DNA of 64,000 nucleotides from Candidatus Nanosyncoccus sp. (GTDB taxonomy: Bacteria; Patescibacteriota; Saccharimonadia; Saccharimonadales; Saccharimonadaceae): NCBI GenBank assembly GCA_045641305.1, contig JAZUGS010000013.1, positions 421 through 64,420 on the forward strand, in the 5' to 3' direction. Below are positions 7,555-9,944 of the stretch, one piece after another (the stretch's first letter is position 1; the number at the start of each line of letters is the position of its first letter). A program made the position numbers and the translations under genes. A model generated the notes under the pieces. That model saw only the letters and a list, made by a program, of their open reading frames with translations, had not been told where the DNA came from and ran no database searches.

Positions 7555-8781
7555 CTAGTTACGTTTTAACATCACCGTAAAGGCTTCGGAAGGAATGTCA
7601 ATTTTGCCAAAACGTTTCATGCGGGCTTTGCCGCGTTTTTGTTTTTCGAGAAGTTTAGCTTTACGATCGCGATCTCCAGTATGAATTTTTACCGTAACGT
7701 CCTTACGATAGGCGCCAATAGTTTCACGCGCAATAATACGAGCGCCCACAGCGGCTTGCAAAGCAACTTCAAAATTCTGACGAGGAATAACTTCCTTTAA
7801 TTTCTTAGTGATGTCGCGACCAATTGCGTCGGCCTCGGTGCGATGACACATGACGCTGAGTGCATCAATTTTGTTTCCGGCGACAAGAAAATCTACCCTC
7901 ACAAGATCCTCGGATCTGTAACCATTTAGCTCGTAGTTAAAAGAAGCGTAGCCAGAGGTTGCAGATTTTAATTGATCATAAAAATCGGTCAAAAGGTTTG
8001 CCATTGGTGCTTCAAAATCAATTACGGCACGGTCCTCAATATAACTAAGGTTAGTTTGATGACCGCGTTTTTCGTTAATTAGACTTAAAACATTGCCAAT
8101 CATATTTTGTGGCAAGATAATTTCCCCTTTTACCCAAGGCTCTTTAATCTCAGCAACATTGGAAATATCTGGCAAATCGGCGGCAGATTTAATCTCGAGT
8201 TCTTCACCACTATTCATGATGACTTGATAATTGGTAGATGGATTCGTAATGATAAGGTCAAGTTTAAACTCGCGCTCGAGACGTTCCTTTATAATGTCCA
8301 TATGCAGAAGTCCCAAGAAACCAATACGAAGGCCAAAGCCAAGAACGGGAGAATTTTCCGGCTCAAATCTAAGTGCAGAATCACTAAGTGAAAGTTTCTC
8401 TAGCGCCTCCTTCAAATCTTTATATTGGTCATTTGAAACTGGGAAAAATCCAGCATAAACAAATGGCAACACGTCTTTGTATCCAGGAAGCGGAGCTGCT
8501 GCTGGTGTTTTTGCCAAGGTTACAGTATCACCAACCTTAGCTTCACGTGTGGTTTTAAGATTGGTTACAATGTAGCCAATTTCGCCTTCACCTAGCGTAC
8601 TTTTTGGAGTCATTTTAGGAGTTAAGACCCCAACTTCCAGAGCTAAACCATTTTTTTCGGCAGCCATCATACGAATTTCTGCATTTTTTGGAATTTCACC
8701 TTCAAAAATTCGAACATAGAGGACAACTCCGCGATAGTCGTCGAAATAAGAATCGAAAATAAGTGCTTTGGTCTCTGTCAT
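7555..8781 (-). CDS. lepA: Elongation factor 4 (LepA), C-terminal part (domain II to CTD)
   Basis: KALIFDSYFDDYRGVV, GFGLRIGFLGLLHMDII, IPRQNFEVALQAA and KRGKARMKRFG. It has its own TGtTATAAT-N7-ATG start. Confidence 0.92.
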   Translation of the reverse strand: MTETKALIFDSYFDDYRGVVLYVRIFEGEIPKNAEIRMMAAEKNGLALEVGVLTPKMTPKSTLGEGEIGYIVTNLKTTREAKVGDTVTLAKTPAAAPLPGYKDVLPFVYAGFFPVSNDQYKDLKEALEKLSLSDSALRFEPENSPVLGFGLRIGFLGLLHMDIIKERLEREFKLDLIITNPSTNYQVIMNSGEELEIKSAADLPDISNVAEIKEPWVKGEIILPQNMIGNVLSLINEKRGHQTNLSYIEDRAVIDFEAPMANLLTDFYDQLKSATSGYASFNYELNGYRSEDLVRVDFLVAGNKIDALSVMCHRTEADAIGRDITKKLKEVIPRQNFEVALQAAVGARIIARETIGAYRKDVTVKIHTGDRDRKAKLLEKQKRGKARMKRFGKIDIPSEAFTVMLKRN

Positions 8782-8855
8782 TTTATATATTATAACACTT
8801 TTTCCATCGACCACAAATACCCCTTATATTTTAACGGTTATGTTATAATTATGAT

Positions 8856-9395
8856 ATGGATAATTTGGTATTCCTAATCATCGCAATAATCACTTTATTA
8901 TTTGGCCTAGCATTTTTGAGCTGGGGCATCTATCAGATTAAGACTGGCAAAATGGTTGCGAAGCGCGCCAAAAACCCCGTTGATGAACCAAAGCAAGTCG
9001 GTATGCTATTTATTTATGTAAGCCTAGTTGGTTTTTGGCTAACTTATATATTTATGATCGCTTTTCTCTCAGCGGATCCTGCACCAGCAATCAGTATCAT
9101 TTTTATGGCAATCAGTGCTGGCTTTGTGATGACGGCAGCAATTTATGGTTTAATAAGAAAACGGATTTTTGGGCTTAAAAATACCGTCAAAGTCGCTAAA
9201 AATGTACGCAAACACTACGCAACGGTGAACGTTGCTACGCTTATTATGGTACTAGCCTTTTTGACGCTGTTCTCTAATGTTGTAGTCTCTAGAGCAAATA
9301 CTTTTATTCCAGTCGTATTGGCTGGAATTATCCTTTTAGCTGCTTTCACGATTGTGTTTTTATTAGTCAAAATTAGACAAGATTCTAGAAAATAG
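8856..9395 (+). CDS. Multi-pass membrane protein inserted between the lepA halves
   Basis: 179 aa with about 5 TM helices; leaderless TGtTATAAT-N6-ATG start. Confidence 0.8.
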   Translation: MDNLVFLIIAIITLLFGLAFLSWGIYQIKTGKMVAKRAKNPVDEPKQVGMLFIYVSLVGFWLTYIFMIAFLSADPAPAISIIFMAISAGFVMTAAIYGLIRKRIFGLKNTVKVAKNVRKHYATVNVATLIMVLAFLTLFSNVVVSRANTFIPVVLAGIILLAAFTIVFLLVKIRQDSRK

Positions 9396-9944
9396 TTATT
9401 TTCTAGGTGCAGGAGCGCTCGAGATAATCTCGTCAAGGACTTTTTCAACATTCATGCCAGTTTTAGCGGAAACACCAATAATATCTTCTTTCTTACAGCC
9501 AAGGAGATTGATGATTTCGGCAGAGACTTTTTCGACGTCAGCAGCAGGGAGATCAACTTTATTGATAACTGGGATAATCGTAAGATCCTGTTCAATCGCA
9601 AGATAAACATTTGCAAGCGTCTGCGCCTGCACACCCTGAGTAGCATCAACCACAAGGATTGCAGTTTCAACGGCCTGGAGGGAACGTGAAACTTCATAAG
9701 AGAAATCTACATGGCCTGGCGTATCGATGAGGTTAAGCGTATAGCCTTTCCAGTGCATCGTGACAGGCGCCAGTTTAATTGTGATTCCTTTTTCGCGTTC
9801 AAGCTCCATGGAATCGAGAAGCTGCGATTTCATTTCGCGCTTCTCGACCGTACCCGTAAGCTCCATCATGCGATCGGCCAGGGTAGATTTACCGTGGTCG
9901 ATGTGAGCAATGATGCAGAAATTGCGGATTTTATCAGTATTCAT
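9396..9944 (-). CDS. lepA: Elongation factor 4 (LepA), N-terminal GTPase domain
   Basis: [26 protein letters not shown]-like [15 protein letters not shown] and NKVD motifs; stops after the G domain. Confidence 0.95.

Follow-up and report, generated by a model that had tools for sequence, protein, structure and literature searches.

Two adjacent genes encode the domains of EF4

The window analysed here, a stretch of 64,000 nucleotides (nt) from Candidatus Nanosyncoccus sp., a gut or rumen saccharibacterium (assembly GCA_045641305.1, contig JAZUGS010000013.1, positions 421 to 64,420 of the forward strand), carries lepA, the gene for the translational GTPase EF4 (LepA), in two separate pieces. 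Downstream of pnp lies lepA-N, a free-standing G domain. A membrane-protein gene on the opposite strand, here called M, comes next, followed by a short spacer and by lepA-C, which encodes the rest of the protein (Table 1). This is the arrangement that a first-pass annotation, made from the sequence alone, had described, with lepA broken at a domain boundary and both pieces intact, and its coordinates and features stand. The two pieces are in different reading frames and are separated by 614 nt holding the opposite-strand gene, and the single polypeptide of about 600 amino acids (aa) with all domains by which EF4 is recognised is not found in the window.

Together the pieces cover nearly all of LepA. 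On the TIGR01393 lepA model, lepA-N spans positions 2-183 of 595 and on its own scores 296.9 bits, under the cut-off of 533.9, while lepA-C spans positions 189-594 and passes that cut-off with 539.1 bits. Against E. coli LepA (3CB4) the N-half corresponds to residues 3-183 and the C-half to residues 192-592, and the matches of the halves to solved EF4 structures reach 1e-63 and 5e-122. The break thus falls in the short linker that connects the G domain with domain II, the sole LepA segment absent from both pieces. The GTPase motifs of lepA-N are complete (G1, G3 DTPGH, G4 NKVD, G5 SAK), and its His78, within DTPGH, is the equivalent of E. coli His81, whose role in catalysis has been described (PMC4339808). 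The protein ends in SSAPAPRK, with PAPRK-TAA at the end of the gene. lepA-C matches the Pfam families GTP_EFTU_D2 (PF03144), PF14492, EFG_C (PF00679) and LepA_C (PF06421, 5.9e-42). In these genomes the N-half is annotated merely as 'GTP-binding protein'. Since the stop codon of pnp lies 2 nt upstream of the lepA-N ATG, lepA-N is most likely co-transcribed and translationally coupled with pnp, and the two are presumably co-expressed.

Metagenomic data, in which many related strains occur together, could in principle yield such an arrangement as an assembly artefact or a chimeric contig. However, an independent contig from ENA (L001) is identical to the window in its arrangement, Logan contigs from three other public runs (X2, X3 and X9) cross both junctions, and lepA is split in 17 GTDB genomes from many different studies, so that we give virtually no credence to an artefact. 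The first-pass annotation had called for support across both junctions, which these contigs supply, and had named misassembly and a second intact lepA as what would undo its reading. Misassembly is not upheld, and no second lepA lies within the 64-kb window.

Split lepA in about a fifth of close relatives

Relatives were scanned with one genome per GTDB species, which gave 80 loci with a lepA-C that is 85-91% identical. All belong to Candidatus Nanosyncoccus or Saccharibacteria and come from gut samples, of ruminants, horses and mice among others; the flanks sampled extend to at most 6 kb on each side of lepA. The gene is fused, as one continuous open reading frame (ORF), in 63 of these loci and split at the same linker in 17, which is the comparison of lepA structure among relatives that the first-pass annotation had proposed. 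No split assembly was found twice among the 80 best lepA-C loci. In a protein search, 18 of the 120 best lepA-C homologs were 405-423 aa long and the others 587-663 aa. Split lepA is thus present in about a fifth of close relatives. A clade-wide split had at one point seemed indicated by a word-index search with the N-half, in which nearly all matches were about 180 aa long; this was an effect of ranking that the locus analysis and the C-half search corrected. In the representative library, the matches of the N-half search were mostly fragments, with no usable length signal.

Both halves are kept, in N-to-C order and on one strand, in all 22 split loci analysed. In L085 and L089 the 3' end of the N-half is still present at the contig edge. 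What lies between them differs among species (Table 1), and in some of them (L033, L090) the halves are separated by several genes and up to at least 4 kb. With contents that vary so widely, or are absent altogether, the gap behaves as an intergenic region that gains and loses genes. Among the 80 loci, the most frequent occupant, His_Phos_1, is found adjacent to split lepA only and never in the sampled flanks of fused lepA; in L033 a His_Phos_1 gene lies upstream of lepA-N (673-1236). The small Cys/His-rich ORF of L088 and L089 conserves ..CWVGDTHKICYKT..VYKCEYG.HWHLSSSQKVL, starts 1-3 nt past the lepA-N stop and has its own stop inside the -10 box of the lepA-C promoter. The 56-nt spacer of the window has its homolog in the end of the L088 gap nearest the promoter, and it appears to be left over from the 3' part of the Cys/His-rich ORF.

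M is cargo in a pre-existing gap

The M cassette, whose boundaries are set by comparing filled with empty alleles, is present or absent among near-identical strains. It consists of an extended -10 element TGTTATAAT (8841-8849), a 6-nt gap and the ORF (8856-9395) with its stop, and nothing else, and it is flanked by a 5-bp direct repeat, ATAAC. M is absent from L002-L004 (one Logan and two ENA assemblies), in which the lepA-N protein is 100% identical to that of the window. In these alleles PAPRK and a TAG or TAA stop are followed by a 56-nt spacer and the same TGTTATAAT-N7-ATG, with the pieces out of frame.

According to the first-pass annotation, M inserted into an intact lepA and so created the split. 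Such an origin would fit the window itself, where M fills nearly the whole gap and its stop abuts that of lepA-N at 9395/9396, as that annotation had seen. It would also fit L085, in which a homolog with 61% identity occupies the same place in the same orientation, with the stops likewise abutting, and so points to long residence in one sublineage. Yet the alleles without M, identical in their N-half, are also split, with the pieces out of frame and the spacer and promoter unchanged. In 17 species the break falls at this same site and the cargo is unrelated, and homologs of M are found elsewhere too, both upstream of uvrB and in the interval from dprA to topA. It is therefore very unlikely that M split the gene. 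Since alleles that lack M are still split, and other species are split with other genes or none in the gap, M is a real gene that was added as cargo to a pre-existing intergenic gap and is not the cause of the split.

Among 5.8 billion proteins, nine make up the M family, in which the loop WGIYQIKTGKMVAK..DEP..VG is invariant, and the AlphaFold2 model of M is a confidently predicted five-helix membrane bundle (mean predicted local distance difference test score, pLDDT, of 85.5). M belongs to no family in Pfam, NCBIfam, PHROG or PADLOC, has no fold match in the PDB below E=1, and has no relatives that we could find in viral contigs. Nor does the gap hold a homing endonuclease of the HNH, GIY-YIG or LAGLIDADG kind: M has no such hit, and the other cargos are a phosphatase, a DUF3137 protein, an ORF6N protein, a surface protein and an ATPase. 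An insertion sequence or transposon is not recognisable either, as the cassette lacks both a transposase gene and terminal inverted repeats. The ATAAC direct repeat stands alone, and deletion at microhomology would account for it equally well. No attC-like palindrome was found in the cassette between promoter and stop codon. The first-pass annotation had seen neither a transposase nor a flanking repeat, and the former statement holds, while the latter is nearly right, to be corrected for ATAAC and an 11-bp inverted repeat (CTAGAAAATAa/g) at the stop-stop junction. There, at 9385-9406, the last 11 nt of lepA-N (CTAGAAAATAA) face the last 11 nt of M (CTAGAAAATAG) with no base between them, and both proteins end in RK-stop. 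This inverted repeat could be a trace of the insertion mechanism, a shared bidirectional terminator, or chance.

A contig of run X1 that lacks the cassette was considered as a further empty split allele and rejected. At its joint, 60 of 76 letters are readable, and these are in frame (..LDAVIERGRNV..ALAATRALIFD..), which resembles a fused relative more than an empty split allele. Its likeness to lepA is lost upstream of 9556, it may be chimeric, and it is excluded from the evidence.

lepA-C has its own leaderless promoter

The promoter of lepA-C consists of TGTTATAAT (8797..8789), 7 nt and the ATG, 8797..8779 as a whole. In 20 of the 22 split loci the ATG of lepA-C stands 6-7 nt after TGnTATAAT, with near variants in the other two, and in the His_Phos-type loci inspected the promoter comes directly or shortly after a GC-rich hairpin, the terminator of the cargo upstream. 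Within the window, TGNTATAAT-N6/7-ATG has 16 exact matches against 0.05 expected, and all of them open long ORFs except one that stands directly before tRNA-His. Judged by these matches, TGnTATAAT-N6/7-ATG is the usual leaderless promoter of the genome, and a large share of its genes would be expressed from leaderless mRNAs with extended -10 promoters. The dedicated promoter TGtTATAAT-N7-ATG that the first-pass annotation had assigned to lepA-C is thus real and conserved in relatives, and it is of the kind that is standard in this genome. In the literature we found no report of leaderless promoters in Saccharibacteria. The conservation of promoter and ATG also places the start of lepA-C at the ATG at 8781 (MTETKALIFDSY) and not at the GTG at 8814, the start given by gene callers (419 aa), which is not conserved in relatives.

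It is conceivable that a single polypeptide is still made by recoding, be it read-through with frameshifting, bypassing like that of T4 gene 60, or protein trans-splicing. In the allele without M the gap is just 56 nt long, and the stop and the ATG each follow an AAA codon, superficially like take-off and landing sites. However, translational bypassing in the window would have to cross 614 nt that contain a gene on the other strand and, immediately upstream of the ATG, the promoter of the C-half. This half is in another frame, and its promoter is conserved. The pieces do not resemble those of a split intein: no Hint/intein domain and no extra residues are found at the break, the N-piece ending about 5 model positions past the G domain and the C-piece beginning 3-4 residues before domain II. 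Recoding is scarcely credible in view of these features.

Both halves are under strong purifying selection

Pairwise ratios of non-synonymous to synonymous substitution rates (dN/dS, after Nei and Gojobori) between split loci are 0.016 for the N-half and 0.028 for the C-half, compared with 0.058 and 0.041 for the corresponding parts in fused pairs. Between L015 and L017 there are 57 synonymous and 0 non-synonymous differences, and between the window and L002 there are 90.5 and 6.5, respectively. In Tajima relative-rate tests, split lineages set against the closest fused relatives show no consistent acceleration. Strong purifying selection acts on both halves.

Model bacteria can live without EF4, and reduced symbiont genomes lose genes. 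The two pieces could accordingly be taken for a decaying pseudogene of an EF4 that is dispensable in a reduced genome. However, no frameshift or internal stop occurs in either half across the 22 loci, all GTPase motifs are intact, and the dedicated promoter is conserved. With the low dN/dS, the absence of acceleration relative to fused sisters and the retention of both halves in 22 loci, decay is rejected as highly improbable, and the first-pass annotation was right to argue against it.

The halves differ in their recent histories, since within the species-level group of the window the synonymous divergence (dS) from L002 is about 0.06 in lepA-N and 0.39 in lepA-C. This suggests a putative recombination break at or near the gap. 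Beside the junction in L055 and L041 no recombination tracts were seen; synonymous sites are saturated.

The linker is hypervariable in fused relatives

In fused relatives the region between the G domain and ..T(K/R)ALIFDSYFDD is hypervariable, with up to about 60 extra residues. The long linkers are GC-rich (0.55-0.67 against about 0.43) and contain near-perfect palindromes with a folding free energy (dG) of -60 to -99 kcal/mol and the core CCCGTnnnnACGGG. These palindromic elements, about 110-200 nt long, sit in frame in the lepA linker (at about locus positions 5850-6000) of many fused species. A further 17 copies were found in about 1 Mb of fetched loci, some of them intergenic and some in frame inside ORFs, namely uvrB, a 784-aa ORF and an ORF of about 260 aa. 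The window showed no such element, and the spacers of split loci have no homology to the linkers of fused loci beyond the promoter motif. That fused relatives tolerate up to about 60 extra linker residues indicates that a tight covalent tether is not needed. The linkers show that the EF4 of this genus accepts long tethers, probably unstructured, at the very site where other lineages lack any tether. An AlphaFold2 model of a fused ortholog with a long linker (P0317) has a mean pLDDT of 44 from a shallow alignment and is uninformative.

Split forms are patchy on the lepA tree and also on the pnp tree. All 200 of 200 bootstraps place the split L055 nearest to the fused L007, and 195 of 200 place L041 nearest to a fused species. 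The module of phosphatase, terminator and promoter is visibly homologous across split lineages, and distances between the His_Phos cargos disagree with those between the lepA genes. Such a history may reflect a single ancient fission that was later undone by re-fusion in some lineages, lateral transfer of the module through recombination in the conserved flanks, or repeated hits at a permissive site. The patchy distribution fits a broader scenario, with which the bootstraps, the homologous module and the discordant cargo distances are compatible. Here the linker between the G domain and domain II would be a recurrent site of breakage and insertion, at which palindromes are taken up in frame without breaking the gene and whole genes interrupt it. 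Splitting would have arisen, spread or been reversed by in-frame re-fusion several times within the genus, giving the first natural heterodimeric translational GTPase and a slot that gathers accessory genes. We put this scenario forward tentatively, as one that may well be wrong.

Table 1. Features of the lepA locus, gap contents and palindromic elements in relatives, and other features of the window. Positions without a locus name refer to the window.
Feature	Position or locus	Strand	Basis or remark
pnp, polynucleotide phosphorylase, 724 aa	9947..12121	-	ORF list and sequence; Pfam RNase_PH/KH/S1 on the identical gene in L001
lepA-N, stand-alone EF4 G domain, 182 aa	9944..9396	-	Pfam GTP_EFTU (PF00009) 1.4e-58; TIGR01393
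Stop-stop junction, inverted repeat	9385..9406	no strand	Read from sequence
Cargo cassette with M, 558 bp	8838..9395	+	Filled vs empty alleles
M, membrane-protein ORF, 179 aa	8856..9395	+	Leaderless ORF inside the cassette
Spacer with lepA-C promoter, 56 nt	8782..8837	-	Kept in M-less alleles too
lepA-C, domains II, III, V and LepA C-terminal domain, 408 aa	8781..7555	-	Pfam, TIGR01393
TGnTATAAT promoter sites (examples)	2137-2154(-), 8841-8858(+), 8779-8797(-), 14092-14130 (divergent pair), 28462-28480(-), 63529-63546(-)		
Gap cargo: His_Phos_1, ~188 aa	13 species: L013, L015, L017, L026, L027, L032, L037, L041, L044, L045, L051, L054, L055	same strand	
Gap cargo: ORF6N / anti-repressor-like gene and phosphatase	L025		
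Gap cargo: DUF3137 protein, 404 aa	L005		
Gap cargo: Fib_succ_major surface protein, 1353 aa	L033		
Gap cargo: Cys/His-rich ORF, 66-68 aa	L088 (724-924), L089 (120-326)		
Gap cargo: AAA_14/DUF4143 ATPase beside surface-protein gene	L090		
Gap cargo: M homolog, 61% identical	L085	opposite strand	
Gap cargo: none (56-72 nt)	L002-L004, L077		
Linker palindrome in fused lepA	L007, L011, L021, L042, L043, L047, L058, L065, L069, L070, L083 and others		
Palindrome copies elsewhere	L048:368 and 3320, L062:1483 and 9700, L086:1600, L039:621, L054:533, L067:708		
tRNA-Ile, anticodon UAU	50143-50219	+	Uncommon bacterial way of reading AUA; tRNA-Arg(UCG) next
392-aa ORF	5799-6977	-	C-terminal hydrophobic segment; no Pfam match; downstream of GNAT acetyltransferase gene (6974-7339)

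Discussion

We consider it probable that the two pieces form a functional two-subunit EF4, produced by fission of lepA at a linker that tolerates insertions. That the split gene is functional is well supported, and we infer that the halves also assemble physically and have EF4 activity. In this Candidatus Nanosyncoccus, lepA has undergone fission in the flexible segment that joins the G domain to domain II. In the proposed scheme, lepA-N, responsible for GTP binding and hydrolysis with the catalytic His78, would be expressed with pnp, and lepA-C, with the ribosome-binding body and the C-terminal domain of LepA, would have an extended -10 promoter of its own, giving a leaderless mRNA. The halves would then bind each other non-covalently, free or on the ribosome, using the surfaces by which domain I normally contacts domains II, III and V. 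After the break, the gap became ordinary intergenic DNA that gains and loses genes, M being one such cargo.

Several points weigh against a two-subunit enzyme. No added docking motif is visible at the new termini, and the different promoters of the halves could yield unequal amounts. A second, more divergent lepA may lie elsewhere in the genome, of which 64 kb were seen, together with flanks of at most 6 kb in relatives. EF4 is dispensable in model bacteria, so one half alone could keep some function. A search for RNA data found a single run, of unknown type and with short contigs, that is uninformative on transcript ends.

The main rival is that both halves are functional but separate, one as a free G-domain GTPase and the other as a ribosome-binding LepA body devoid of GTPase. 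The separate promoters, the distance of at least 4 kb with several genes between the halves in L033 and L090, and the lack of a visible docking extension at the new termini are all in keeping with this. However, no lineage has lost one half, and the constraint on the halves equals that on single-chain orthologs, which suggests that the interdomain surfaces are still used. Moreover, the domains of EF4 outside the G domain influence its ribosome-dependent GTPase activity (PMC4339808), which argues against independent roles. We regard separate functions as unlikely, and a two-subunit EF4 as the more probable interpretation.

Compared with canonical single-chain EF4/LepA (E. coli 3CB4; Thermus thermophilus 4W2E and 5IMQ), the proteins encoded here share all five domains, the GTPase motifs, and their order and orientation. 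They differ in that the G domain and the rest are two genes, each with its own start, stop and expression signal, and with a gene between them. The event itself is gene fission at a domain linker and as such of a known kind. In phage Aeh1, nrdA is split by the homing endonuclease gene mobE. A comparable insertional fission has been reported for mitochondrial cox2 (PMC5374615). Both cases resemble lepA: a conserved gene for a single chain is interrupted where interruption is tolerated, the break contains foreign coding DNA, and selection acts on both pieces. Here, by contrast, the occupants include no homing endonuclease or recognisable mobile-element gene and vary by species, and lepA stays broken even where the gap is empty.

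Split genes also occur in the reduced genomes of Nanoarchaeum equitans and other DPANN archaea. Those, too, are core information-processing genes fissioned at domain boundaries in ultra-small symbionts with reduced genomes. The halves of lepA differ from them in lying adjacent to one another, in a split state that is polymorphic within one genus (about 20% split), and in that the gene encodes a translational GTPase. Split genes of DPANN archaea are mentioned in PMC6349945. The palindromes of the fused relatives have a parallel of their own. They are, like the Rickettsia palindromic elements, in-frame palindromes in protein genes, and this comparison concerns the fused relatives only. Rickettsia palindromic elements are selfish palindromes inserted in frame in protein genes (cf. 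PMC1779305). The palindromes here keep lepA fused and share no sequence with those elements. In the literature we found no report of a split lepA or of any naturally split translational GTPase.

In translational GTPases, hydrolysis of GTP by the G domain is coupled to motion of the remaining domains of the same chain. If the two-chain EF4 proposed here is real and maintained by selection, this coupling would be able to work without a covalent link, and Candidatus Nanosyncoccus would offer a ready-made system for studying interdomain communication and the still-debated role of EF4. In practical terms, tools that rely on marker genes or estimate genome completeness, and that expect a single lepA, may miscount the split gene. 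The coexistence of fused, expanded-linker, empty-split and cargo-bearing states in one genus moreover provides a rare stepwise view of how a break in a core gene turns into intergenic space.

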